From IMG/VR virus record IMGVR_UViG_3300032136_000011, positions 1-36,764 of that record: DNA of 36,764 bases, one strand, 5' to 3'. This stretch comes from a virus. Taxonomy: Duplodnaviria; Caudoviricetes. Made by a program: the position numbers and the translations under genes. Each line of letters opens with the position of its first letter. Within the stretch, counting starts at the first letter, position 1. Of this stretch, positions 4,283-36,764 are shown one piece after another. The notes beneath the pieces are model-generated. The model had not been told where the DNA came from and searched no databases. It worked only from the letters and a program-made list of their open reading frames with translations.

Positions 4283-5821
4283 TTACTCCTTTATGTCTTC
4301 GTTGTCTTCTGCGCTATCTGGTGCATTTTCCTCGTTAATTGGTGCGATAGGTGCGTTTTTATTAATAGGGTCTTCTTCGTTATCTGGGTCGATATCGTCT
4401 TCTACTTCTTTCGAGCCGATTTCGTATCTAGGCTCCCCATATTCGAAGAAAATCTGATTAATTTCTTCTTCGGTCGCATAGGGATGTAGTCTTTTAATCT
4501 CTTTTTCTCTATAGCTTAGCCCATTTTGCAACATAGATACTGCGTTATTAATCTCGGTAGTATAATCGAGCTTGGCCATTGGCTCTTTAAATTCGATAGA
4601 GATACTATCCTTAATAGCTTCTACGTCTACTTTACGTAGCCCTAAGTCTCTAGACTCTGGGAGAGTTAGCCAGTAGTTATTTAATTTCGCTAATAAGATA
4701 AATAGCTGCTTTTCTTCTTTAGCTAGGTAGCTAATAGATTTCTTCCTAGCTTCTGTAGTGTCTAGCTCATCCATGGCCTTAGACAGACCCGAAGCGATAT
4801 CCTGGCTGTCTAACTGAGTAATGCTTCCCGCATCTATCCCCTTAGTATCTAGCCATAATGCTAATACGTTTTTGAACCACGTTAGAGCTTTATCGCTATC
4901 TACTTCTGGCTTAATAGTACCTATCTGGGCCGTTTTATCTGATTTATCTCTACTGGATAAATCCCAGATAGCATTAGGACTCATAGTAGCATCGTTAAAT
5001 TCTACGTCGATACCATAGATTAATGTAAAGCACTGAAACATTATGGCCCCGTTAATATCTGATAACATTAGCGGTAGTATCTGGGCCAATTTTCTAAAGT
5101 CTGTATCCTGTTTAGGTACGATATTCGATACCGACCTATTTCCATATACGAAAGGGATACAGCCTAGCGGATTTCTATACTGTAATTTCTCTGCGATTTC
5201 TGGTAGCCAGTCGCCATCTTCTGTAAATCCGATTATCTCGGTATCCGTATAGGCTATATACCATTTCTTTTCTACGATTTTATCTTTCTTCGTAGTATCT
5301 TCGATTTCCTGTCTTTCTACTGTACCCATAAATTCTACGAAGACGCTCGGATACATAGTATCGGAGGGGTCGTCTGCTTTTACGTAAAATTTATCGTAGG
5401 GTAGAACGTCCATTTTAATTTCGCCACGATTAGTTAATTTAGGTTTGAGTGCATAGCCTCTATTTAGATGCGAGTACTCTTCGGCCAGGCCCATTTTATT
5501 ATCTACGTCGATATACCTTTCGTACTCTTTTAAAAACTCCTGGTCGTCGCATTTTCTCAAAGGACTATCTGCATAGGATTTAGCTAATTTATCGACTATT
5601 TTCTGGATAAAATTTATCGGTAATATACGATGCTTAATCAGTTTATAATAACGCTCGTCTAGCGTCTCCTGCATTAACTTTTCTACATATTCTAGGAGAT
5701 TTCCCTCGTAGATATCTAGTATCTCTTCGTTATGCTCGTAGAAGATATCTAAGTCCTTTATATCTTCTAGTAGCTCGTCTATGCGCTCTTTTAGCGGCTT
5801 CGCTTCTTTAAAATCTATCAT
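4283..5821 (-). CDS. Portal protein (SPP1 gp6-like)
   Basis: 512 aa, follows terL; NFIQKIVDKLA, NPLGCIPFV and ASGLSK motifs; acidic tail. Confidence 0.85.
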   Translation of the reverse strand: MIDFKEAKPLKERIDELLEDIKDLDIFYEHNEEILDIYEGNLLEYVEKLMQETLDERYYKLIKHRILPINFIQKIVDKLAKSYADSPLRKCDDQEFLKEYERYIDVDNKMGLAEEYSHLNRGYALKPKLTNRGEIKMDVLPYDKFYVKADDPSDTMYPSVFVEFMGTVERQEIEDTTKKDKIVEKKWYIAYTDTEIIGFTEDGDWLPEIAEKLQYRNPLGCIPFVYGNRSVSNIVPKQDTDFRKLAQILPLMLSDINGAIMFQCFTLIYGIDVEFNDATMSPNAIWDLSSRDKSDKTAQIGTIKPEVDSDKALTWFKNVLALWLDTKGIDAGSITQLDSQDIASGLSKAMDELDTTEARKKSISYLAKEEKQLFILLAKLNNYWLTLPESRDLGLRKVDVEAIKDSISIEFKEPMAKLDYTTEINNAVSMLQNGLSYREKEIKRLHPYATEEEINQIFFEYGEPRYEIGSKEVEDDIDPDNEEDPINKNAPIAPINEENAPDSAEDNEDIKE

Positions 5822-7263
5822 ACCTTCGACCTCATTACTGATTTTTTAGGGTTAGAATATCTGTTAATTAAATAATCTATCCAATATGTTATGGCAGTCG
5901 TAACGTGCTGCTGCTCTAATGTATCGTCTTCTACATTATCAGCCCCCTTTTTAGGCTCTGTCAATCGGAAGCCCTCGTCTACCCAGTCGCAGCCTTTATA
6001 AACATAGAAGCGGATATCTCCCTTCTCATTTTCCATAACTCCATTAGCTGTATTATGCCTTCTACGTAGTGGGGGATTTTTGCGGGGAAGGCATAGCTCG
6101 AATTGCAATAGGGAGCCGTCTTTACGTCGATAATTAGCTATAAAATGCTCGATAATCTCATAGTCCGAGCGTATCGAGCGGGTATCTGCATTTTTACCTG
6201 TAGCATCTCCGAATACTCTCCAGCGTACAGGTAACTCGAAGGCCCCGTCTGCTGCCATTTCTTCTAGAAGCGAGTCGGTACGCATCGTCTCTGCGTGATA
6301 CTCTTTAAATATATGGAAAGTATCTCCTATATATTGGCCTAATGCCCAGGACATAGGCTTTCCCTTTCCTATGTTAAAGTCGGCCATTAAATCTACTGGG
6401 TATTTAGGGTCTAACTGATAGACTTCTTCTCTTTTAAAATGCTTATTAGAGTCGTAGGCATAATATACCCTATCGCTATCTATTTCTACCCATAGACCCC
6501 GAAGCTGCCTATCGGCTTCCTTTTTCGTTAAATTGTTTTTGAGAAATTCGACGTAGTTACTATCCAGAAATGGGTTATCGGTCGTGATACTATAATAGAC
6601 ATGAGTACCAGGCTCATGCGCTCTTTCTATAAAGTCTTTATGTATCCAATGAGCGGGAGAGTCTGGGTTAGTTAATAATAATAAAGTATTTTCCTTAATA
6701 TGGGGGATACGATTAAGACGCTGCATAATCTCTCTAATCGCTTGTTTATCTTCTGCATTATTTTCTGTAGCTTCTTCGATAATGGCCATGGAGATTTTAA
6801 GCGACCTAAACTTTTTATACCTTTTATCCCCCCACGTTCTACTAAATATCTCAGACTTAGTTTTAGGAAAATATATCCTACATACCGTATCATAGGTTAC
6901 GTAGTCTTCTCCTTCTACTAACGTCTCGTCTGCGTCTAATAGCTCTACGATATCTGAGTAGATAGTATCCCTTAAATCGGGAAGCCCTCGTCTACCTAGT
7001 AGACATTTAGCCCGCTTAAATTTAGTACAGTGATTAATGGCCATAAAGCCAGCTAATGTCGTCTTAGCAGACCCTACGCTCCCAGAAAATAGGACTCGCT
7101 GTACTCCTAAGTGATACTCCCAGGTATTGGCCTGCTCCCATAATACTCGATACTGCCATTTAATTTTACGTGGGTCGAAAGTAGAGTAGGAGAGTAGCTG
7201 CTCTGCGTATAGGTCGCTAAATGTCGGCTCCGTAGCTACTGCAGTACTGGCCATGGCTTCCAA
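5818..7263 (-). CDS. terL: Terminase large subunit
   Basis: Walker A GSVGSAKT, Walker B variant MAIIEEA, motif III LTNP, DNPFL, nuclease ADFN and GDATG. Confidence 0.92.
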   Translation of the reverse strand: MEAMASTAVATEPTFSDLYAEQLLSYSTFDPRKIKWQYRVLWEQANTWEYHLGVQRVLFSGSVGSAKTTLAGFMAINHCTKFKRAKCLLGRRGLPDLRDTIYSDIVELLDADETLVEGEDYVTYDTVCRIYFPKTKSEIFSRTWGDKRYKKFRSLKISMAIIEEATENNAEDKQAIREIMQRLNRIPHIKENTLLLLTNPDSPAHWIHKDFIERAHEPGTHVYYSITTDNPFLDSNYVEFLKNNLTKKEADRQLRGLWVEIDSDRVYYAYDSNKHFKREEVYQLDPKYPVDLMADFNIGKGKPMSWALGQYIGDTFHIFKEYHAETMRTDSLLEEMAADGAFELPVRWRVFGDATGKNADTRSIRSDYEIIEHFIANYRRKDGSLLQFELCLPRKNPPLRRRHNTANGVMENEKGDIRFYVYKGCDWVDEGFRLTEPKKGADNVEDDTLEQQHVTTAITYWIDYLINRYSNPKKSVMRSKV

Positions 7264-8333: not shown

Positions 8334-8543
8334 ATGGCCAAAAAGAAGAAAGAATATGAAGTAAAAATACCAGTATCTCAGTACTGGGTATTTAGTTGTA
8401 AAGCATATTCTAAAAAAGAAATTTTAGAAGCCTTAAAAAATAATAAAGAGCATGAGTTAGAAGACTGGGAGCAGATATACGGGATAGCTGCTCCGATGGG
8501 GGCTTCTAAAACTATTGTTTTACAGTACCCAGAAGAAGACTAA
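8334..8543 (+). CDS. Hypothetical protein
   Basis: 69 aa, AGGAGG RBS. Confidence 0.75.
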   Translation: MAKKKKEYEVKIPVSQYWVFSCKAYSKKEILEALKNNKEHELEDWEQIYGIAAPMGASKTIVLQYPEED

Positions 8544-14727: not shown

Positions 14728-14917
14728 CCTATTTTTTAGTACCTTAGCTTTTATCGTACTGGCAGCATATACCGCTTCTAGGACTTCCGACTACCAGCAG
14801 CGTATTTTTAATCTAGAAAATCGGCTCCATAGCTGCGAAGATAAAGTAGAAAATATAGACCGAAAAAATCACGTATTAGAGCATATACTGGGGGTAGAAG
14901 ATGCTAACGAAAATTAA
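14714..14917 (+). CDS. Small membrane-anchored coiled-coil protein
   Basis: N-terminal hydrophobic helix LVSLFFSTLAFIVLAAY followed by a heptad pattern. Confidence 0.65.
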   Translation: MSLVSLFFSTLAFIVLAAYTASRTSDYQQRIFNLENRLHSCEDKVENIDRKNHVLEHILGVEDANEN

Positions 14918-15497
14918 TATAGACGCTTCGAGGCTGGATACTAACGAGAGAAAAGAGAAAATCGAGCAGGTAGCAGTAGAAATGCACCAGATAGTTAACT
15001 CTCGTATCTTTCAGGATAAAGTACACACTATGAAAAAATGGGGCGAGACTTCTAAGTATAAAGATGCTTCTAACCAGCGTATCTATAAAATGATTATGGA
15101 CGGAGCGGAGACGCTAGACCCTATAGTCGATAACGAAATGGACATTTTTATCGACGACTATTTTAGCTGGAGACGAGTTATAGGTTATACGAAAAAGAAT
15201 ATTAAGACGATTTTCGTTAATACCCGCTACTTCGATAAAAGGGGTACTAAGTTAATCGGCTCTAATATCATGCATGAGTATGGACATAAATTAGGCTTCG
15301 GGCATGATTTCTATGCTACTGATAGAAGACCTTTTAGTATCTGTTATCAGTTAAATAATATCTATGAGGAGTGCTACGATAGACTCTTCGGTTATACATT
15401 ATCTAAAATAAAAGTCTGTTATCGTCCATGGTATTTTCTAGGGCTTCGTAAAAAATGCTACTGGAAAGAAATCGTCAATAGCCAGGAGCAGCGTTAG
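14901..15497 (+). CDS. Zincin metalloprotease-like protein
   Basis: HEYGHKLGFGH (HExxHxxGxxH); VIGYT and IFVNTRYF strands. Confidence 0.8.
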   Translation: MLTKINIDASRLDTNERKEKIEQVAVEMHQIVNSRIFQDKVHTMKKWGETSKYKDASNQRIYKMIMDGAETLDPIVDNEMDIFIDDYFSWRRVIGYTKKNIKTIFVNTRYFDKRGTKLIGSNIMHEYGHKLGFGHDFYATDRRPFSICYQLNNIYEECYDRLFGYTLSKIKVCYRPWYFLGLRKKCYWKEIVNSQEQR

Positions 15498-21976: not shown

Positions 21977-24438
21977 TAGATTATCCTATATCCTTTCTCG
22001 TCTGCGAAAGCATAGACTTCTAGCCTATGTCCTATCGCTGGAGTTATGTCTAAGTCCTCATTTAATGTTATGGTATTCGAGGTTATATCGTCAATTATCC
22101 TAGTCTCAGAGTCTATCGTAAAGTCTTCGCTGTGGACTTGTACTTCCATACCTACCTCGTATTTACCTATCTCGCCCGCATCTACGGTAAAAATACTAGG
22201 AGAAGTTACTCCAGTTAATAGAGACGAGGGCATAACGAAGGTATGAGATAGCTTTATAGCTCTGTCTATATCTTCTTCGCTACCTTTATAGTTATCGAAA
22301 GTAGCGGCTTCTATCCAATAGCCCTCATTCGGGGCTATGGATAAAGCAGGAGTTATAATTAGCCCGTTATCGGTAACGGGGTCTAATGCATCTATAGTTA
22401 CCGTCTCTTCGAAGGTAAAATCGTCGCTTCTAACGGTAATCTGGAGTCCTACCCATTTTTCCCATTTTTCCCGCTCAGTTAAAAACTGGTCGCTCCCCCA
22501 AAAAGACTCTATTAATACTTTAGTCGTCGTAGAGCCTGCAGCGACTCTGGAAGCTGCGGAGTAGGTAGCAAAAATACCGTCAATACCGAAAGAAGTCTGT
22601 AGTAATTTTAGCGAGACTTCGCCCTTGATTAAATCTAGTTGACGGTCGATTACTTCGTACTGCTCTAGAGGAAGATTTCTTTCTCCAGACTCTAAATTAA
22701 CGAGCTGGGTATCTTCTCCCCCGAAAAATACGATATCTCCTATTTCTATGGTAGCGGCCGTAGAAAATAGAACCTTTACATTTTGGACGTATAAGCTACC
22801 GAATTTATAGCGATTTAGTATCCTATCACCTATCCGCTGGAGAGTCTGTAGGACTGCGCTAGAGCGTGGTAACCCCTTAGCTTCTATAACCTGGTCTTTT
22901 CTTCCAGCTTTTATGCGACTTAGAGAGTCTGCATTAATTTTTATCAGCTTATTAAAAAACTTTCCAGTCTCTAAGGTACCAGTATTATAGCGATAGATTA
23001 CTCTATTTAATAAATATTTATGCGTACTTCTTTTTAATTTTGTTTTTACTAGGTCGTAGCAATTTTCAGTATTGAGGACTGGTATCTCAGTAGCGGAGAA
23101 AGGAGGGGCCGTAAATTTTATCGAAGTACGGGCCTTTCTGCTTATAAGATATAATCCCATAGGGCGACATATTTCTTTTATTATAAACTCTCTGGTATCT
23201 GATATCGTCTCGTCTAGCTTAAAGCTAAAAGGTACGAAGGCCGAAGAAAATAAGTCGTTAACTTCCTGAAAGGCTGCTGTATCTATAAACTCAATATCGA
23301 GGCCACAGCCGTCTGGAAGCGTATTATACTGCGATTTTATCTGTAAATTTACAGTTAATCCCGTCTCTTCGGTTAAAGTCTCTTCTTCCACTACGATATA
23401 GCTTTTCCCTGTATCTAGCGTGGCGAAAGACTGTACGGTATACTCTCCGTCGTTAGAAGCTGTACCCGATAATAGGATTTTATCCCCAGGTACGAAGCCT
23501 AATTTACCTTGGATATCGAAGTAGTCGACGATAATCGCCCGCTCTACCGTCTCTGTAGAGCTAACTCTAAGCAGCGCAGATACATTATACCCAGTATCGG
23601 TAAAGGTATTTCCTTCGTTACTATGAAGAAGCTTTAATATTAGCTCGATAGGAGACTCGTTAATAGTGTAGTAACTCGTAATCTCCGACTCGTCTTCGTG
23701 GCTAGTCGCTATCGTACCCAGTCTTTCTCTAACGACGGTAAAGGTATTAGCTACCTCGTCTCTAGAGACGACTTCCATAATCTCGTCGCCTATCCTGATA
23801 TAACTCGTAACGATATCCTGGCTATCTAGAAAGGGATTTACGGTATCTGCGGAAATGGTAGTCGTTACGTTATCTATCGTACCGCTTAGTACTCCCTGGT
23901 AAAGCTCGTAGCTAGACTGTCTAGCTAAGTTAGTATTTAAGGCTATAGATACTGCGATACTTCCAGCGTTATACTCGATATCGTCTACATTTCCTTTTAG
24001 GATAGGTATAAAATCCTGTGGAAAGCGGGAGCCTTTTAAAGATACGTATACGGTCGCTTTCTTAGAAAGCGGGTCGCCTATCTGGTTAAATGATAAATCT
24101 TCTGCTACTTCTCCTTTATAATCAACTAAATCGACGGTAAAGTTAGAAATACTTCCACTTCCGCCCTTGTCGACGAGTAGCTGCTGGGCGAGTCTTTTCG
24201 TAGTCTGGCCGCCCTTTATGATAATATATGGCTTAGAGTCTTCTCTTTCTATCTCCCCGTCCCAGGTAACTCCGATATCATTATCCCACTTAATACGGGG
24301 GTCGTCCCAGCGGGCAGTTTCTTTTATGGGAGCCGTACCGTAAATATATTTACTATCCTGTATCTGCACAGCGATAATAGGCTCTTTATTTATCTGGTCG
24401 GCCAATGCCCTGAAAGTAGGAGTTACGGTATATGCCAT
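21976..24438 (-). CDS. Large tail protein (central tail hub or tip-like)
   Basis: About 820 aa, acidic and beta-rich; YIRIGDEIM...VVRERLGT..TSH motif and IEIGDIV segment typical of tail proteins; likely start MAYTVTP at 24438. Confidence 0.7.
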   Translation of the reverse strand: MAYTVTPTFRALADQINKEPIIAVQIQDSKYIYGTAPIKETARWDDPRIKWDNDIGVTWDGEIEREDSKPYIIIKGGQTTKRLAQQLLVDKGGSGSISNFTVDLVDYKGEVAEDLSFNQIGDPLSKKATVYVSLKGSRFPQDFIPILKGNVDDIEYNAGSIAVSIALNTNLARQSSYELYQGVLSGTIDNVTTTISADTVNPFLDSQDIVTSYIRIGDEIMEVVSRDEVANTFTVVRERLGTIATSHEDESEITSYYTINESPIELILKLLHSNEGNTFTDTGYNVSALLRVSSTETVERAIIVDYFDIQGKLGFVPGDKILLSGTASNDGEYTVQSFATLDTGKSYIVVEEETLTEETGLTVNLQIKSQYNTLPDGCGLDIEFIDTAAFQEVNDLFSSAFVPFSFKLDETISDTREFIIKEICRPMGLYLISRKARTSIKFTAPPFSATEIPVLNTENCYDLVKTKLKRSTHKYLLNRVIYRYNTGTLETGKFFNKLIKINADSLSRIKAGRKDQVIEAKGLPRSSAVLQTLQRIGDRILNRYKFGSLYVQNVKVLFSTAATIEIGDIVFFGGEDTQLVNLESGERNLPLEQYEVIDRQLDLIKGEVSLKLLQTSFGIDGIFATYSAASRVAAGSTTTKVLIESFWGSDQFLTEREKWEKWVGLQITVRSDDFTFEETVTIDALDPVTDNGLIITPALSIAPNEGYWIEAATFDNYKGSEEDIDRAIKLSHTFVMPSSLLTGVTSPSIFTVDAGEIGKYEVGMEVQVHSEDFTIDSETRIIDDITSNTITLNEDLDITPAIGHRLEVYAFADEKGYRII

Positions 24439-24728
24439 TAGTCGCAGTCTCCGAATTTTAAGCACTCGAAAAGACGCTGCTCTTTATTTTCGTAGTAATC
24501 TCGAATTAATTCTATTTCTTCCTGAGTAGGTATAACGGTTAGTTTATCAGGGATATCTAATACTTCCCCGTCGCAGGCCATTTTCCCTGCAAAATCTCCC
24601 TGCTGTATTAAAGTTATGCACTCTCGTACTTCGGGTCTATTAAAATATTCGCTAGCTTCCTGATTTTGACATTTCGCCCCCAGAATTAAGGGTAGAAAGC
24701 TCAGTAGATAGACGGATAATTTCCTCAT
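24438..24728 (-). CDS. Putative lipoprotein, o-spanin-like
   Basis: MRK, hydrophobic stretch, LGAKC (Cys20, non-canonical lipobox); further Cys residues; overlaps the upstream gene in another frame, as Rz/Rz1 do. Confidence 0.55.
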   Translation of the reverse strand: MRKLSVYLLSFLPLILGAKCQNQEASEYFNRPEVRECITLIQQGDFAGKMACDGEVLDIPDKLTVIPTQEEIELIRDYYENKEQRLFECLKFGDCD

Positions 24729-24900
24729 TAGTTGTAGCCTTTCTAATTTCTTTTAAAAGGTCGGCTCTTTTTTTGGACTTTTCTGCCCGAGCTTCCCTGC
24801 TTTCGCTTAAAAAGTATTTATCGACGATATAACCCACTAGCTTAGTAGCTAGTGGGTATATGATGTACTTAAATAAGCCTTCGAGTAGTTTAGGACTCAT
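24652..24900 (-). CDS. Putative i-spanin-like membrane protein
   Basis: Moderately hydrophobic N-terminus, charged helix, 77-nt overlap with the lipoprotein gene. Confidence 0.4.
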   Translation of the reverse strand: MSPKLLEGLFKYIIYPLATKLVGYIVDKYFLSESREARAEKSKKRADLLKEIRKATTNEEIIRLSTELSTLNSGGEMSKSGS

Positions 24901-25115
24901 TAGAGATTATCTTCTCCGTCGATTTTATCGATAGCGTCTACTACTAGTCCTTTAAGCATTTTCATACCTTGTAGGACAGTATCGTCTACTAGCGACACAG
25001 TATCCGCTACGTAGATTTCTGCGATTTCGATAGCCTCGTCTAGAGCCATAACTAGGTGTCCTTCTGCTTTTTTAAGTAGAAGTCCTTTGATTTTTTCTTC
25101 CATTGATTTTTCCAT
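24900..25115 (-). CDS. Hypothetical helical protein in the lysis cluster
   Basis: AGGAG RBS supports the start MEKSMEEK at 25115. Confidence 0.65.
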   Translation of the reverse strand: MEKSMEEKIKGLLLKKAEGHLVMALDEAIEIAEIYVADTVSLVDDTVLQGMKMLKGLVVDAIDKIDGEDNL

Positions 25116-25119
25116 GATT

Positions 25120-25398
25120 TTAACTCCTTTTAATAATTTCGCCTTCATAGGCTTCTAGAAATTTAGTAATCTGGGCCTGCGACCCTTCTAAAGTATGCAG
25201 TCTATCTCGTATTTTTACAACTTCGGAAGCGTTAACTCGGCTTCTTTCTTCCGTAGCATCATGCTTTACATTTAATTTTACTAGCTCCAGCCGTACTTCC
25301 GTTATGGCCTGGAGGGTCTGTCTAGTAAAGAAAGCGTTAATTATTAATAGTAGACTTAAAAATGAGCCTACTAAAGCTACGAGAAGGTCTAAGCTCAT
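25120..25398 (-). CDS. Single-TM coiled-coil protein (holin/antiholin-like)
   Basis: LLVALVGSFLSLLLIINAFF TM helix followed by a coiled coil. Confidence 0.55.
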   Translation of the reverse strand: MSLDLLVALVGSFLSLLLIINAFFTRQTLQAITEVRLELVKLNVKHDATEERSRVNASEVVKIRDRLHTLEGSQAQITKFLEAYEGEIIKRS

Positions 25399-25448
25399 TT
25401 TTTATAAACCTTTTTACCTTTCTTTTTGCATTTTTTCTTTTTTGCCAT
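25395..25448 (-). CDS. 17-aa lysine-rich micropeptide MAKKKKCKKKGKKVYKK
   Basis: AAGGAG RBS, ATG at 25448, TGA overlapping the next ATG (ATGA). Confidence 0.65.
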   Translation of the reverse strand: MAKKKKCKKKGKKVYKK

Positions 25449-25458
25449 AACTACTCCT

Positions 25459-26025
25459 TTAGTTACAAGTATACCCGCCCGCAGTTATTAAAGCTAATAT
25501 CTGAGCTTTTCTATCTGCAGTAATCTGGGCATTTTCTTCGATATCATTTACCTGAGTATAACCTGCGCATATATCCCCATTTTCGAAGCTCATAAAAGCG
25601 GGAGCTAGAAGAGTACGAAGAGCGATACGAGTAGGAGCGTCCCAGCCATTAGAGATAGATAGCAGCCTAGCTTCTGAGATAACAGACTTCCCGAAGGCTA
25701 CGTCTTTACCTAGCTGCTCTAATGCTAACTGCTTAGTATATCCTGCTGTGATATCGGTAAAAGTGAGACTAAAAGTATCTGGGCAGCCGTACTCGGTTTT
25801 TAACGTGATTTCGTTAACTCTTTCTTCTATATAGAAGTCGCAGGCCACAGTCTCCCATTTTATCTGGCCCCATTTAGTATAGGTAATTTTAGCGAAATCT
25901 TCTAACTCCGCTCTAGTATCAGCTTCTTTGTAAAGCTGCTCTGAGTTTTTAGTATTAATATCTAACTTCCAGCGAGCTTCGGCTGTAAAAGAGATTAGAA
26001 TAAAAAGTAAAGGTAAAAATCGCAT
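25459..26025 (-). CDS. Signal-peptide-bearing tail-fibre chaperone-like protein
   Basis: MRFLPLLFILISFTAEA signal; beta N-half and helical C-half, directly downstream of the fibre gene; 4 Cys. Confidence 0.6.
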   Translation of the reverse strand: MRFLPLLFILISFTAEARWKLDINTKNSEQLYKEADTRAELEDFAKITYTKWGQIKWETVACDFYIEERVNEITLKTEYGCPDTFSLTFTDITAGYTKQLALEQLGKDVAFGKSVISEARLLSISNGWDAPTRIALRTLLAPAFMSFENGDICAGYTQVNDIEENAQITADRKAQILALITAGGYTCN

Positions 26026-26033
26026 ATTATCTC

Positions 26034-28469
26034 CTATAATTGAGTAGTATCTACGTAGGTACTCGGAAGCTCGCAGACTTCTAAATATGTACCAGTTAAA
26101 AGGTTAGCTAACGTGCGGGCGGCTAGGTTAACCTGTAAAGTACTATCTGTGGCAGTATAAATCTTAGGAGAAAAAGTCGTCCAGCTATCCTGATTAGCTA
26201 CAGTATAGTAATTTCCCGTCCTAAAGTTGTCCATTACGGCAGAAGGTGCGCTATCCTGGAAGGAAATTACCATAGTTGACCTCCCAGCCCCCGTCGACCT
26301 TTCTCTAGCGTACATACGTAATCTATATTTTCTTCCTACGGTTAAATTAGAAAAAGTTAAATCGGACATAACTCCAGTGGAAGCTTTATCTGCTGATAGG
26401 GTTTTAGTCTGGCAGTTAACGGCCATATCTGCTGCTAAATTCTTTACTATCGCTTCTTTATTAGGGATTTCCTGTACATATAGGTGGTGTAGTACCGAGT
26501 TATTAGTATGAATAGCTGTCTTATTTATTTTAATAGCGTAGGTATTTCCTGCGGTTACGTCTATAATACACTCGAAAGGAGCCGCTCTAGAGCTTGAAGC
26601 CTGATATCCGCATATTTTAACCTGGGTCGAACCATTTTCATATATATAAACTGCAAAATCACTCTGAGGAGCGGAGATATAAACTGCCCCGCTAATAATC
26701 CAGGTACCGTCTCTAGGAGCGGTAGCTATGTTATTACCTGCCCAGATACCGTAGGGGTCTTTAACTTCGTTAAAGGTTAGACTAGTAGAGTTAGCTGTGA
26801 TTGACTGCGCTCCGTTTCCCCTACCTTCGAATTGGATTAACTCAGTATCTCCTATCTGCTCGAATACTCCAGCGATAACTTTAGATATATTCCTCAGTCT
26901 AACGTATGGTACAAGGGCCATGTTATTAGGCCTAGTCTCAGACTGCGTAGAAGAGACGGTAATAGCTGGGTCGACGGTGTTAGTACGGGCTGCATTAACC
27001 CCCGTACCTGTAGTACCTCCTGGCCTATTTTTAGACACTCCTACGTTAGTTACTCCGTATCTATGATAGTTAATATCTCCGTTAACTGCTACCCCAGACT
27101 CCCCTTGTAAATGGTAGTGGCCAGCCTGATTAGCAGAAAGTCCATTAACTGCTGTGGTATCGGTCTGCGTAGTACCTACAGCTAGCGAGCCTCCTGCGGC
27201 CCTGATAAATCTATTATCTGTTACTAAGTCTGGTACTCTAAATCCGTCTCCAGAAGTAGTAATCGTACAGTCTCCGTAGGTATCGGAGCCAGTATTAGCT
27301 ATAAAATCTGGGTAGTCGGCTTCTAAGTAGCAGCTCCCGTCGGCCTTTACTAAATCTTCTGTATTAGCGATATCTCCTGCTAGCCAGACGATTTCTCCAG
27401 CCTGATTAGCCGTAGTCTGGACATTTTGGACTGCAGCGTCTAGCCCCGAAGTCCAGCCTAATATAGGTACGTCTATATAGATATCTACACTATCTCCGCT
27501 AACGAAGGTAATGGGAGAAGTAGGATTAACTAGACTGGCCATAGTCGACCCGCTATCGTTAGTTAAAGTAAAATTAGTAGCTGTATTTACTCTAACTCTA
27601 CCTTGCCTAGCTGCTGCTGAGGAGTCCCAGATAAAAAAGTATCCTGCGTTTTTTCTAGCGTTAAAACCTTTAAAGGCAGCTACGTCTATTTCTAGTCCGT
27701 CTGGTAAATTAAAAATAAAGTTACCTCCCGCAGGAGTAGCCGTTAGAGATACCTGTATCCTAATTTCTAGGTTACTCCCTACTCTTCTTTTAGACCCTTC
27801 CGAGGTAAAGCCAGAAGTCCAGCCAGTTATATCTGGGTTAAAATCTTCCCAGTCGGTAATGGGATTTAGAGTACCCGTTAACGCACTACTGGCCTTTACT
27901 CCTCTAGGTACGCTAGAGTCGAATACTAGGAAATCTCCGTCGCTACCTGTAGCGAAGACTGATTTATCTATTTTCATAGAGCAGTCGTCTACGTAGTAGG
28001 TAGCTGATACGTTAGCGGCTTCTAGTTGAATACCGTTAGACGTAGCTCCGATATCGCCTCTAACTTCTAAAAACTCCGAAGAGCCGTCGGTTATAACCGT
28101 CTCTTTTTCTACTAGCCCGTCTTTTAACAGTCGTACTGTTAAATCTGCTCCAGAAGCGGAGAGATAGCAGCTAGCTACGTATTTTAATCCTGAGAAGGAG
28201 GCTAGAGAAGTGATTTCCTGCTTTAACTCTACATTTTGAGAAGCGCAGGATAATTTATAGGATTTATTTAAAAAAGGGATATTAGTCTCTAAAGACCTAG
28301 TACAGGTACCGTTATCCGTCCAGCCTTTATAGCCCTGCTCGAAGCTAGGGTTAACGAAAGCTCCTATCTGCTCTAGATATTGGCTCTGGGCTGGCTTAAT
28401 CTGGGCTTCCGCTACATAGCTAACGAAGCCTAGTAAAATTACCGTTAAAATAAATAAATTTTTTAGCAT
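26034..28469 (-). CDS. Signal-peptide-bearing mosaic tail fibre / adhesin with a tail-collar domain
   Basis: MLKNLFILTVILLGFVSYVAEA signal; NPSFEQ..GW CBM-like start; collar GEIVW...ADGS...YPD...FRVPDL...FIR...ETRPNNMAL; C1q-like segment ATAPRDGTWIISG; 10 Cys. Confidence 0.8.
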   Translation of the reverse strand: MLKNLFILTVILLGFVSYVAEAQIKPAQSQYLEQIGAFVNPSFEQGYKGWTDNGTCTRSLETNIPFLNKSYKLSCASQNVELKQEITSLASFSGLKYVASCYLSASGADLTVRLLKDGLVEKETVITDGSSEFLEVRGDIGATSNGIQLEAANVSATYYVDDCSMKIDKSVFATGSDGDFLVFDSSVPRGVKASSALTGTLNPITDWEDFNPDITGWTSGFTSEGSKRRVGSNLEIRIQVSLTATPAGGNFIFNLPDGLEIDVAAFKGFNARKNAGYFFIWDSSAAARQGRVRVNTATNFTLTNDSGSTMASLVNPTSPITFVSGDSVDIYIDVPILGWTSGLDAAVQNVQTTANQAGEIVWLAGDIANTEDLVKADGSCYLEADYPDFIANTGSDTYGDCTITTSGDGFRVPDLVTDNRFIRAAGGSLAVGTTQTDTTAVNGLSANQAGHYHLQGESGVAVNGDINYHRYGVTNVGVSKNRPGGTTGTGVNAARTNTVDPAITVSSTQSETRPNNMALVPYVRLRNISKVIAGVFEQIGDTELIQFEGRGNGAQSITANSTSLTFNEVKDPYGIWAGNNIATAPRDGTWIISGAVYISAPQSDFAVYIYENGSTQVKICGYQASSSRAAPFECIIDVTAGNTYAIKINKTAIHTNNSVLHHLYVQEIPNKEAIVKNLAADMAVNCQTKTLSADKASTGVMSDLTFSNLTVGRKYRLRMYARERSTGAGRSTMVISFQDSAPSAVMDNFRTGNYYTVANQDSWTTFSPKIYTATDSTLQVNLAARTLANLLTGTYLEVCELPSTYVDTTQL

Positions 28470-28477
28470 TTTATCTC

Positions 28478-29866
28478 CTACTCGTATGCTATAGAGGGGC
28501 TAAACTTTAGAAGCCTAGCGTCGTCTACGGCCGAAGAAGTCTCGTTAATATTATCTCTGTATAATTTTATAAGTAAAATATCCCCTGCGGCCACAGCATT
28601 TCCGTTAATCTGACCTGTAGCATCGGTTAAATCTAAGTCGCCCACTTTAGTTAATGCGTTAGCGGTAGTTAGAGTTAGCTCAGTATTAGCACTTAAATGC
28701 GTATCTAGCCCGCCCGTTACGTCGTCTCCCGTCTCGATTAATGTAGTATCTGCTTTAAAGAGTACGTTATCGGAAGAAGCTGCGCTAAAGAAGGCTGCAT
28801 TTTTTAGGAAAATCTGATTACCTGCTTTATAGCTTTCTGGTACGGTTACTAGAGCGTATACTTCCATATTAGACTCGAAATCGAAATCTAGAAGGCTCAT
28901 ACCGTTATAAATGGACTCAATAGGGGAGATATCCCCAGTTAATTCGAAGATAAAAGAGCCTCCGCCCCCTGCTCCTCCGCCTAGAAGATTTTCTAACTTA
29001 GCTTTCTTTTTATTAAATGAGTCTTCGGAGTCTTCGATTAATACGATATCATTTTCTACTAAATCGATTTTTTCTGTAAAGGTATTAAAGTCGCCTGCTG
29101 CTCTTTTTAACTGAGCGTCGTCGGTTACGTTTCCTAATCCTACCTGGGCGGGAGTATAGTCTCCAGTCTGAGCTACTACTGCTCCAGTACGACCGAATAC
29201 GCTCGTAACCTCGTCGTTAGTATCCCATTTCTGCCAGATAGTACCATTATTAACGGCTTTATCGCCTACATTAAAGGCTATAGCTCCAGCTCCGAAATCT
29301 ACCGAGCCTGCTACCGTACAACGATACCAGAAATTTTCTACTCCAGTATCCGTATTAGCTAGCGTCGGGGTATTAGTAGAAGCGTCCCAGGTACCTTTAT
29401 AGATTAATAAGCTATTAGGTATCTGAGTTAGAGGTATTTTACCGTCTGCATCTAAGGTAGCGATACCTACTGCTAGCGGGGCCGTAACTGAGTCTACCCC
29501 CAGAGAAGCGATAATATCCGCTATATCTCCGTCGTTACTTATAATGGCAGCTAAGTTAGAGGCGATACCGTCTGCATTAATTTTAACCTGAGCGTCTAGC
29601 TTCTCGATAGCTACTTTACGATTATCTCCGTTAGCTATGTAATTTTCGTTAGCATAGATTAGAGCGTTAGGGTCGCCCTCGCCTACGATACCGATAATCT
29701 CGCCTATGGTATAAATATGCTCCTGCAGATTAGTTAAATGCTTATTAACATCTACCCCATTTTGGAGGCTAAGTATCCCAGTTATAATATCGTCTTCGGT
29801 CTTTAGCAGGTAGACTGCATTGGCCTGGACGCTCGATAACTCCTGATTAAATTCTGTTTTTGCCAT
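28478..29866 (-). CDS. Tail fibre protein (proximal, no signal peptide)
   Basis: GIATLDADGKIPLTQIP, YKGTWDASTNTPTL and VTSVFGRTGAV...AQVGLGNV fibre motifs; poly-Gly hinge. Confidence 0.8.
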   Translation of the reverse strand: MAKTEFNQELSSVQANAVYLLKTEDDIITGILSLQNGVDVNKHLTNLQEHIYTIGEIIGIVGEGDPNALIYANENYIANGDNRKVAIEKLDAQVKINADGIASNLAAIISNDGDIADIIASLGVDSVTAPLAVGIATLDADGKIPLTQIPNSLLIYKGTWDASTNTPTLANTDTGVENFWYRCTVAGSVDFGAGAIAFNVGDKAVNNGTIWQKWDTNDEVTSVFGRTGAVVAQTGDYTPAQVGLGNVTDDAQLKRAAGDFNTFTEKIDLVENDIVLIEDSEDSFNKKKAKLENLLGGGAGGGGSFIFELTGDISPIESIYNGMSLLDFDFESNMEVYALVTVPESYKAGNQIFLKNAAFFSAASSDNVLFKADTTLIETGDDVTGGLDTHLSANTELTLTTANALTKVGDLDLTDATGQINGNAVAAGDILLIKLYRDNINETSSAVDDARLLKFSPSIAYE

Positions 29867-30651
29867 TATCTAACCTCTATTTTTAAAAATACCAAGCCGC
29901 TAATTTCGTAATATCCTGGTAACGACTGTCTAACCTTCTCCCGAAGCTCGTACCCTACTCCCTTCGAGTTATTACCAGTTTTATCTAGGATACAAGGTAC
30001 GAAATCGTTAGGCGAGCTGTAGTCGTAGATAAATTCTACTGGAGCTTTAGTAATTAAGTAATCTAAAAAGGCTTCCGCCTCGTCTACTCCAGTACTACTC
30101 TCCCTGATAAATCGCTGCGGTACATAATTAGTAATTAAAGGAAGGTCGCACTTCATACGCTCTAACGTAGAATAGGAGATAACTTCCGTTATGCCCGCTG
30201 GGGTAGTTTTTACCTGAGCTTCTGCTTTTTCTTTATTATATTTAAAGTCTGAAAAGTTTTTTAATGGGGTCTGAGTAATGTAGGCTTCTCCGCTAGCTTC
30301 TCCGCCCTCGTAGGTATTAGACCCAGTTACGTCGGCTCCGCTAAATCCCATTAAAGCGAAGGCAGTTACCGCTTTCTGATTACCTGTATCGATATTTAAG
30401 GTAAAAGCGTTATCTGCGGAGATAACGAGAGTCCTGGTAGCTCGATTTACGGTAACTGTATACTCCTGAGAGCCTGCGCTATTCATAGCTTTAGCTACTT
30501 TATCTGCGAAGCCCGTTAGAGTCGTAGCTCCTATTTCCACTGTGGCCGATAACTGTAATCCCGAGCCGCTTGGCTCAGTAAAGTTAATGTATCGATTATT
30601 TTGCGTAACCGTATGGCCGTAGTAGAAAGCTGAATATTTATTTAATGCCAT
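29866..30651 (-). CDS. Distal tail (Dit-like) protein
   Basis: 261 aa immediately after the tape measure gene. Confidence 0.55.
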   Translation of the reverse strand: MALNKYSAFYYGHTVTQNNRYINFTEPSGSGLQLSATVEIGATTLTGFADKVAKAMNSAGSQEYTVTVNRATRTLVISADNAFTLNIDTGNQKAVTAFALMGFSGADVTGSNTYEGGEASGEAYITQTPLKNFSDFKYNKEKAEAQVKTTPAGITEVISYSTLERMKCDLPLITNYVPQRFIRESSTGVDEAEAFLDYLITKAPVEFIYDYSSPNDFVPCILDKTGNNSKGVGYELREKVRQSLPGYYEISGLVFLKIEVR

Positions 30652-35432: not shown

Positions 35433-35834
35433 TTAACCCTCGTCTCGTATCTCATGTAATATAAAATTTACTCCGAACTCCTGGTCGAAATTTTCTGAGT
35501 TTTTAACTAATGCTTTTACTGTTATCCCCTGTGGGAGTCTCGAAGCGTACTGGGCTTCTCTTTCGTAGATAACTTTCCCCATACATACGTCGAAGCCGTA
35601 CTGTTCTACCCAGACTCCAGGCTGTAGAGGACTCTCTACCCCCATGTCCGTCTGGCTTAGAACGTCCTGAAAGATTTCTAGCCCTTGTAAATATGCTTCC
35701 GTATACGGTATCTGCATCTCGAAGCTATGCTCCCCGTTAGCTGGTACTACGGCCCGCATACCATGTATTTTTAAATAAAGGACTTTATCGTCGTCCGTTA
35801 GGTTATTAGAAAATGGAGTACTCTGAGAGCGCAT
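35433..35834 (-). CDS. Beta-sandwich virion-associated protein
   Basis: 133 aa; LPQGITVKALVKNS...FGVNFILHE ending resembles its neighbours. Confidence 0.55.
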   Translation of the reverse strand: MRSQSTPFSNNLTDDDKVLYLKIHGMRAVVPANGEHSFEMQIPYTEAYLQGLEIFQDVLSQTDMGVESPLQPGVWVEQYGFDVCMGKVIYEREAQYASRLPQGITVKALVKNSENFDQEFGVNFILHEIRDEG

Positions 35835-35836
35835 AA

Positions 35837-36349
35837 TTATCCTACCTGTATAATCGAAGCTATATACTTTTTACTCTGCCCTGGGGCCGATCTAGCCTGT
35901 ACTTTAATCGAAGTCTCCGATTTAATCGGAAAATTAGGAGTAAAGTAGAAGACTTTTAAATTATCGTTCCAAGCTATATATAGAGGAGGCTGCGAAGCCG
36001 CATCTAAATTAGAAATTTCTTTAAATGCTTCTATGTTAATATCGAAAATCTCTACCCCGTCTATCTCCAGCCTAATAAAGACTTTTTTATCGCTAACCTG
36101 TATAGCGAAGCCCGATACCGTTTTTACTCCAGAAGCTACGTATATATCGTAGTTAGTAACGTCGCTTAAAGTAATATCCTGCCCAGACTCCTGTATAATA
36201 CCTAACTCGGTACTGATAGAAGTCTCAGAGTCAACTAGTAGCCTTCTCGCCCCGTCGCCCTTTAATATTACGTCGGCTTCGTAGGCTTCGTCCCCTCCAG
36301 TGATACGGATAGGGCTAGAAGCTTGGATATCTGTTAAATCTGTGGCCAT
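35837..36349 (-). CDS. Beta-sandwich virion-associated protein
   Basis: 170 aa, MATD start like the junction gene, beta-rich C-domain. Confidence 0.6.
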   Translation of the reverse strand: MATDLTDIQASSPIRITGGDEAYEADVILKGDGARRLLVDSETSISTELGIIQESGQDITLSDVTNYDIYVASGVKTVSGFAIQVSDKKVFIRLEIDGVEIFDINIEAFKEISNLDAASQPPLYIAWNDNLKVFYFTPNFPIKSETSIKVQARSAPGQSKKYIASIIQVG

Positions 36350-36361
36350 TAACCTTCCCTA

Positions 36362-36764
36362 TTAAATCTCTAAGCCCTGTACCTGGCTATAAAGCGACTG
36401 TGGCTGGTTATCTAAGTTAGTCTTAGTAACTCTAACGATAACTCCCGTCGCTACTTTCTTTTTATAAATTAGCTCAATATTAGGCTTAGCTGTAGAGTTA
36501 AATCCTACTGCTGCTGTGGTAAATACTCCCGAAGCTGCGGCCGTTTCGATTAGTAGCTCGAAGCGGGCTTTACCGCTAGCGGAGCAGGGTACTTCAATAT
36601 CTTTTAAATCTTTACCTGCTGATACTGTGTAATCATGATTAGCAGAAGCATTTTTAACGATAGCGTCTGCATCGTCGAAGTCGTCTATCTCATCTCCTGG
36701 GCTTTCAGCAGCATAGGTAGGAAGTGGGTTATTTTCTGTATACTCATTTCCGCTAAAATCGGAT
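36362..36764 (-). CDS. 3' part of the 184-aa junction-spanning protein (...YTVSAGKDLKDIEV...SQVQGLEI)
   Basis: Open frame continuing from 1-279 to TAA at 36362-36364. Confidence 0.85.
   Translation of the reverse strand, partial: SDFSGNEYTENNPLPTYAAESPGDEIDDFDDADAIVKNASANHDYTVSAGKDLKDIEVPCSASGKARFELLIETAAASGVFTTAAVGFNSTAKPNIELIYKKKVATGVIVRVTKTNLDNQPQSLYSQVQGLEI
36638..36764. repeat. Second copy of the 127-bp terminal overlap
   Basis: Identical to 1-127. Confidence 0.95.

Follow-up and report, generated by a model that had tools for sequence, protein, structure and literature searches.

Tailed phages are, to our knowledge, taken to build every part of the virion in the cytoplasm. The host Sec pathway is used by pIII of filamentous phages, but these are assembled at the membrane and tailed phages in the cytoplasm. 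The CBA120 TSP4 complex is reportedly a branched receptor-binding system. In Klebsiella phage KP32 the branching domain of gp37 binds a conserved N-terminal peptide of gp38, a second receptor-binding protein encoded by the adjacent gene, according to the available text of that report (PMC13352976), in which the term 'signal peptide' appears 0 times. The MAT fibres of Bdellovibrio bacteriovorus are cell-encoded, are found on the predator surface and combine a signal peptide with a conserved N-terminal domain, mosaic TNF/C1q tips and disulfides, as described in the accessible part of the source (PMC10769870). Endolysins of phage fOg44 and of the SAR type also use host Sec (PMC6116005, in part) and, unlike the tail fibre described here, are not virion parts. 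This fibre is encoded by IMG/VR virus record IMGVR_UViG_3300032136_000011 (Duplodnaviria; Caudoviricetes), of which the whole stretch from position 1 to 36,764 was analysed and is referred to as the window. An 811-amino-acid (aa) distal tail fibre (26034..28469) with a Sec-type leader is encoded there between a leaderless 462-aa proximal tail fibre (28478..29866) and a 188-aa accessory protein (25459..26025), which also carries a Sec-type leader (17 aa). All features of this tail module are on the (-) strand.

The proposed reading is that this uncultured phage, one of a family, makes its host-recognition tail fibre in two parts, a leaderless 462-aa stub that ends in a domain termed the dock and a leader-bearing 811-aa outer fibre. 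The outer fibre would be exported by Sec and cut before Gln23. It would then fold with disulfides, trimerise and be stored in the periplasm, and lysis would mix the compartments and allow the dock on finished tails to capture the fibre N-terminus. Export and cleavage of the 811-aa fibre are predicted from sequence with near certainty, disulfides within it are hardly in doubt, binding of the dock to the N-terminus with incorporation into the virion is highly probable, and the complete route of Sec export, periplasmic disulfide folding and trimerisation, and docking on the virion at lysis is considered likely. Capsids and tails of tailed phages are built in the cytoplasm and so, if the binding and the export both hold, docking would occur at or after lysis. 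Periplasmic maturation with joining of the virion at or after lysis was one of three options raised in the initial annotation of this DNA; the comparative evidence for it is strong.

The locus resembles the KP32 and CBA120 systems in that a virion-anchored domain is paired with a second protein of conserved N-terminus from an adjacent gene. As far as the available descriptions of those systems go, it differs in the Sec-type leader and paired cysteines of the predicted docked protein and in a stub that, apart from the dock, lacks any receptor-binding part. The coupling of a conserved N-terminal segment to a virion-anchored domain, which characterises branched receptor-binding proteins, was found here at the level of genes. 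In loci found via the fibre (L001, L004, L006-L010, L020, L022/L024 and L023) the preceding gene always carries the dock; one of them, L004, comes from a podovirus-like phage and has a gene for a T7-type fibre anchor immediately upstream. Viral contigs were then scanned prospectively with a DNA motif of the dock only. The scan gave 25 loci, all of them true dock genes without leaders, of which one ends at a contig edge and 24 were testable. A leader-bearing fibre with the N-domain follows the dock gene in 24 of 24 (in L040 after a second dock gene), so that the dock motif alone predicts exported fibres. The 24 loci represent 19 distinct pairs, 15 of which had not been found via the fibre, and the downstream N-domains scored 21 to 182 bits. 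In L008, L020, L045 and L055 the likely fibre start is downstream of the first in-frame start codon. Dock and N-domain distances were correlated (rho 0.44, p 0.0005, 24 pairs).

The anchors to which the dock is attached are unrelated to one another and include siphovirus, T7 and Mu/P2 types. In L033, where a baseplate wedge gene is adjacent, the dock is joined to a fibre anchor of the Mu/P2 myovirus type, and in L042 to a T7-type anchor. It follows a lambda-J-type gene in L034 and a myovirus wedge gene in L043. Fibres that are not split provide a second comparison. L031 encodes a single leaderless fibre of 1131 aa with 2 Cys, residues 2-428 of which are 39% identical to P0043 and 38% to P0061. 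After the Gly linker, P0043 and P0061 (compared as proteins alone) run into a dock; L031 instead runs into a body that is 36-38% identical to P0011, P0012 and the leader-bearing fibre of MW202898. The MW202898 fibre shares two modules with the 811-aa fibre (E values 1e-13 and 4e-7), parts of which are held by P0011 and P0012, and P0012 joins homologues of the T7-type anchor gene of MW202898 and of its leader-bearing fibre in one chain. Unsplit leaderless fibres (L031, and P0012 with its T7-type anchor) have the same anchor types and homologous body modules as the split forms and differ from them in being one cytoplasmic chain with no leader and no dock. From the comparisons with L031 and P0012, the dock occupies the place of the covalent link to the outer fibre. 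The dock-then-fibre order, the variety of anchors and L031 together lend strong comparative support to the earlier suggestion that the leaderless 462-aa fibre could be the docking partner.

The 462-aa stub was modelled with AlphaFold2 (AF2). It consists of an N-terminal stretch that is presumed to be the anchor, a coiled coil, a stalk, a Gly linker and the dock, and it has 1 Cys; matches to PHROG minor tail proteins cover residues 93-255. The dock (residues 302-462, 28481..28963) is a jelly-roll beta sandwich of ~160 residues and is the predicted socket for the exported fibre. Its structural matches are generic and resemble carbohydrate-binding modules (CBM) only (best Z 9.7, root-mean-square deviation (rmsd) 2.9, 125 residues aligned), with no T4 gp10-type domain, the branching domain of KP32/CBA120-type systems, among the 50 matches listed. 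No named phage was found to carry the dock, and no relative of the dock or of the 811-aa fibre was found among PDB sequences. Median dock identity over 24 diverse phages is 35%.

The plug predicted for this socket is the mature N-terminus of the 811-aa fibre, a conserved helix (residues 26-35), with the CBM-type jelly roll that follows it (31-169); in the AF2 model the two span 27963..28403 and contain the Cys pairs 56/75 and 101/163. The jelly roll aligns with 5w6h (CBA120 TSP4) at Z 16.3 and rmsd 2.3 over 135 residues, with many CBMs close behind, and the Atlas match of the N-domain is CBM_4_9. A beta module (residues ~191-341, 27447..27899) common to the MW202898 fibre and leaderless P0011/P0012 is followed by a tail-collar-type region (residues ~355-525, 26895..27407, Cys pair 380/401) recognised by BLAST to P0002 and P0010. 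The homologous region of P0002/P0010 matches Pfam Collar (PF07484); the 811-aa fibre itself has no Pfam Collar match at E<=1. Next is a C1q/TNF-like domain (residues 539-672, 26454..26855, Cys pair 620/634) whose structural matches are trimeric and which aligns with the C1q head 5hkj at Z 14.4 and rmsd 2.5 over 129 residues. The fibre ends in a beta domain (residues 683-811, 26037..26423, Cys pair 686/799), in place of which some relatives carry a collar-like tip. Relatives keep the N-domain and exchange the rest of the fibre, giving mosaic tips. The AF2 monomer model has a mean predicted local distance difference test score of 74, with residues 419-505 poorly modelled. Assignment as a tail fibre is consistent with its place behind the anchor fibre in the tail module and, on this monomer model, with its C1q/TNF and collar domains, the latter by homology.

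The leader of the fibre is a predicted 22-aa Sec/signal peptidase I signal peptide (28404..28469) that ends in AEA. A heuristic requiring an 8-residue hydrophobic core, a basic n-region and a small-x-small site was passed by 2 of the 50 genes of the record, encoding the 811-aa fibre and the 188-aa protein only, and neither leader has a twin-Arg motif or a lipobox. The 462-aa protein fails the heuristic, and the product of the gene at 8334-8543 has no hydrophobic start. Both reading frames begin as initially reported. Each ATG lies 4 nt after a GGAGA ribosome-binding site, at 28474..28478 for the fibre and 26030..26034 for the 188-aa protein, and the first G of each site is the last base of the TAG stop of the preceding gene; a spacing of 4-5 nt had been given for the two. 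The fibre has no further Met before residue 164, and its conserved mature form begins with Gln, a residue that no start codon encodes. The view that the leaders are genuine Sec-type signals and not miscalled extensions is borne out by these features together with conservation in the family.

For the family search, fibre residues 1-170 were used as the query and gave 129 representatives at 50% clustering, from which 15 scoring below 34 bits were dropped. The remaining 114, with a mature N-domain of at least 34 bits, are treated as the family. Candidate loci L011 and L012 proved to be unrelated bacterial CBM proteins and were also dropped. A hydrophobic leader is present in 112 of the 114 members. 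Homologues starting downstream of the hydrophobic segment would have spoken against the leader; the two leaderless exceptions look start-truncated, and one (P0004) regains its leader in L007. The leader is not an artefact of the leader in the query, because 22 of the 23 members with an internal N-domain still have one. In 75 anchored members the residue at -1 before the +1 Gln is small (A62/G8/S4/T1) and that at -3 is always A, S, V, G or T. Mean identity across the family is 25% in the leader and 58% in the first 10 mature residues. MW202898 offers a separate observation on start sites. Its fibre (L002, 35766-38486) is annotated in GenBank as a 'caprin-2 domain protein' from an upstream ATG, and the ATG 11 codons later, behind a GGAG site, yields a typical signal peptide; start miscalls may therefore hide such leaders.

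Disulfide formation requires the periplasm, and the cysteines of the fibre family are paired. The number of cysteines is even in 93 of 99 full-length fibres (median 14 Cys) and in 16 of 42 leaderless dock proteins, at densities of 2.0 and 0.36 per 100 aa, respectively; the members are related and these counts are not independent. The 42 dock proteins are those left after a filter set aside 5 of 47, 3 of them with true leaders. Aligned fibres (90 in all) were scored for having both, neither or only one (discordant) of the cysteines that form each of the five pairs (10 Cys) of the 811-aa fibre. Pair 56/75 gave 40 both, 50 neither and 0 discordant, pair 101/163 gave 24, 64 and 1, pair 380/401 gave 18, 2 and 2, pair 620/634 gave 11, 13 and 0, and pair 686/799 gave 59, 1 and 10. 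The five pairs are thus gained and lost as pairs.

Several observations weigh against the split-fibre reading. Neighbouring genes can travel together as a cassette although their products do not bind, and the distance correlation is compatible with either case. Among the downstream N-domain matches, five are weak (20-33 bits), and a few of the tested fibres are included in the search profile. A dock with a CBM-like fold could, judged by the model, bind sugar itself. Leaders are carried by 3 of 47 dock proteins (P0049, P0054 and P0055), and P0015 and P0059 each combine dock and collar in a single chain that lacks a leader. The exported fibres of L033, L044 and L045 have 3 Cys only and the leaderless P0011 and P0012 hold 6 each, so disulfides alone do not account for export.

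The split arrangement could also serve a fibre that stays free. Released at lysis, it would bind the receptor first and act as a bridging adaptor on which fibre-less virions dock at the surface, with fibres shared among particles. Such an adaptor would use the same coupling of dock and N-domain, and export would separate fibre supply from virion assembly, but dilution after lysis would make stable capture at lysis more economical and, in the available text on known systems, docked secondary receptor-binding proteins are stable virion parts (PMC13352976). A free adaptor is therefore thought unlikely.

The CBM-like fold of the dock raises a further reading in which the dock itself is the tip with which the virion binds sugar, and the exported fibre and 188-aa protein block receptors or serve as a decoy or exclusion factor, protecting progeny or the infected cell. 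A receptor-blocking-type role of this kind is played by Llp of phage T5. The optional presence of the 188-aa gene and the exported lipoprotein-like genes after the fibre in L040 and L045 would fit. The dock is conserved and the fibre tips are mosaic, however, which is the reverse of what a receptor-binding tip would show, and in L031 the fibre body is covalently on a virion anchor; this reading is regarded as quite improbable. The lipoprotein-like genes themselves encode ~300 aa and stand directly after the exported fibre (L040 8912-9859 and L045 7997-8833, coding-strand coordinates).

An adhesin of host type, encoded by an auxiliary gene of the phage and exposed on the infected cell so as to alter prey or surface attachment, is suggested by the likeness of the fibre to the MATs in signal peptide, conserved N-domain, TNF/C1q tips and disulfides (PMC10769870, in part), and the best named match of the phage DNA polymerase is from a phage of Silvanigrella, also of the Bdellovibrionota. 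MATs are encoded in a cellular genome. The window is a complete virus record with no integrase or repressor among 38 proteins scanned, 20 of 20 sampled family members are on contigs of <=48 kb, and no member turned up when 185,579 prokaryotic genomes were scanned with two patterns, at partial sensitivity (the second pattern fits 50 of the 114 members). As far as tested, the fibre would therefore appear not to be a host gene. The ~130-aa MAT N-domain is stated, in the part of the source available, to lack a PDB homologue (PMC10769870), whereas the fibre N-domain has a clear CBM fold. The 811-aa fibre further differs from the MATs in being phage-encoded and tied to a virion-anchored dock. An adhesin would leave the dock unexplained and is held to be very improbable. 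Surface display and a decoy or exclusion role, the other two options of the initial annotation, both fail to account for a fibre that always follows a dock on a virion anchor. An uncleaved leader acting as a membrane anchor, or an internal start giving a cytoplasmic form that assembles normally, is scarcely credible given the strict small-x-small residues at -3/-1, conservation that begins exactly at +1, the Gln at +1 and the paired cysteines, which call for oxidising surroundings.

If the split-fibre reading is correct, the particle is complete only at lysis, its adhesin domains are disulfide-stabilised and its infectivity depends on host Sec and Dsb. No account of an exported fibre route in tailed phages was found in the published literature covered, which excludes most subscription journals. 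The coupling involves two domains (~160 and ~150 residues) across three tail morphotypes and is testable in E. coli without phage culture. It is possible, although doubtful, that the dock and the CBM-type N-domain act as a plug-and-socket standard portable between phages, by which sipho-, podo- and myoviruses that infect one host group complete their virions outside the cytoplasm. Receptor-binding fibres would then mature in the periplasm and join the virion at or after lysis, and particles could acquire fibres produced in other cells or by other phages and so alter their host range with no genetic change. Were the host to grow inside a prey cell, the prey envelope would, as a speculation, keep fibres and virions together after lysis.

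The 188-aa protein (4 Cys) was described initially as chaperone-like. Its leader is confirmed, and the chaperone role is unproven: no match was found in Pfam, PHROGs, PDB sequences or Atlas, and the gene is present in 3 of the 18 loci that extend to the gene behind the fibre. A single-protein scan of viral sequences gave no matches and the protein search gave one homologue; leader-bearing homologues are P0014 and proteins in L001 (137 aa) and L006 (144 aa). Homologues follow two tip types (that of the 811-aa fibre and L006, and that of L001) and are absent after the same tips in L007 and L008, so the protein is not tied to one tip type. A motif scan gave 6 loci, 5 of which were chance matches; the sixth, L031, is weak. 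There the fibre is followed by a leaderless, cysteine-free 187-aa protein that matches the 188-aa protein weakly (hhalign probability 24%, E value 8e-4, 23 columns). If the homology holds, the partner would acquire its leader together with the fibre, which would fit a protein that has to reach the fibre. Mu Tfa and the chaperones of Alteromonas phages are likewise small proteins encoded right after a fibre and sometimes dispensable (PMC10579305, in part); the 188-aa protein differs in that no sequence or fold match was found and in having a leader. Whether it is co-exported as an optional cap or chaperone is rated as an even chance.

The 36.8-kb record is a complete virus with direct terminal repeats and encodes terminase, capsid, tape-measure, DNA polymerase A, primase, helicase and M15 endolysin. 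The tail module runs in the order tape measure, 261 aa, 462 aa, 811 aa, 188 aa, four small lysis-like genes and 829 aa; a single-protein scan of viral sequences with the 829-aa protein gave no matches. A public assembly is identical base for base over 24400-30000 and probably derives from the same sample, so it is not independent. The four small genes (24438..25398) are likely a lysis cassette, judged from predicted membrane proteins and a spanin-like lipoprotein with no family match, and lipobox-bearing genes occupy the same position in L001 and L006-L008. A spanin-like cassette would imply a two-membrane host and a route for mixing of periplasm and cytoplasm.

The DNA polymerase is 33% identical to that of a Silvanigrella aquatica (Bdellovibrionota) phage (E value 1e-66), with the next-best at 2e-8 among the matches listed. 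This is a weak host hint, and the Bdellovibrio link made initially stands to that extent and no further. No N-domain or dock gene was found in the Silvanigrella phage, whose record has gaps, and terminase and capsid searches for a host clue gave distant matches only. Bacteroidota are not known to use Shine-Dalgarno motifs, and D-(S/T)-(A/I/L/V/M/T) is the sequon of Bacteroidota-type glycosylated exported proteins. Shine-Dalgarno-like motifs precede 32 of 44 genes (22% background) and sequons show no excess (281 observed, 301 expected, 99 proteins), so a Bacteroidota host is disfavoured. The Gln at +1 of the mature fibre resembles the Q-rule, the available text on which does not mention Bdellovibrio (PMC5837995). 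A 198-aa HEXXH metalloprotease-like protein (14901-15497, (+) strand; no Pfam or PHROG match) is common to the L001 genome (52%), the L004 podovirus and MW202898 and is a possible marker of a common host group.

Other arrangements of the dock were noted. The leader-bearing P0049, P0054 and P0055 end in the dock, P0054 also with an internal N-domain (28 bits), and are perhaps intermediate segments. P0015 (999 aa) and P0059 (526 aa, contigs of ~200 kb) carry three tandem docks and a collar, or a collar and one dock, and may hang several exported fibres. In L041 and L054 (~5000-6150, coding strand) a stand-alone 180-aa dock gene with no long anchor lies by a possible head-associated gene, and the exported fibre and a glycosyltransferase-like gene come after the dock gene; in these loci the fibre may be a decoration of the head. 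An open reading frame (ORF) of 620 aa with 36 cysteines is found in L033/L047 after the fibre, downstream of lysis-like genes. The 859-aa terminase-like gene of the L004 podovirus (L018 10498-13077, (-) strand) has an apparent insertion which we take to be intein-like from its motif.

Both ends of the window (36362-36763 and 1-279, (-) strand) encode overlapping parts of one ORF, the terminal repeat of a circular assembly. Small conserved genes without family matches (282-1190 and 35433-36764, (-) strand) lie between the capsid and neck genes. The same run recurs in L001, L006, L007, L023 and L024, and its products are possibly head decoration proteins.

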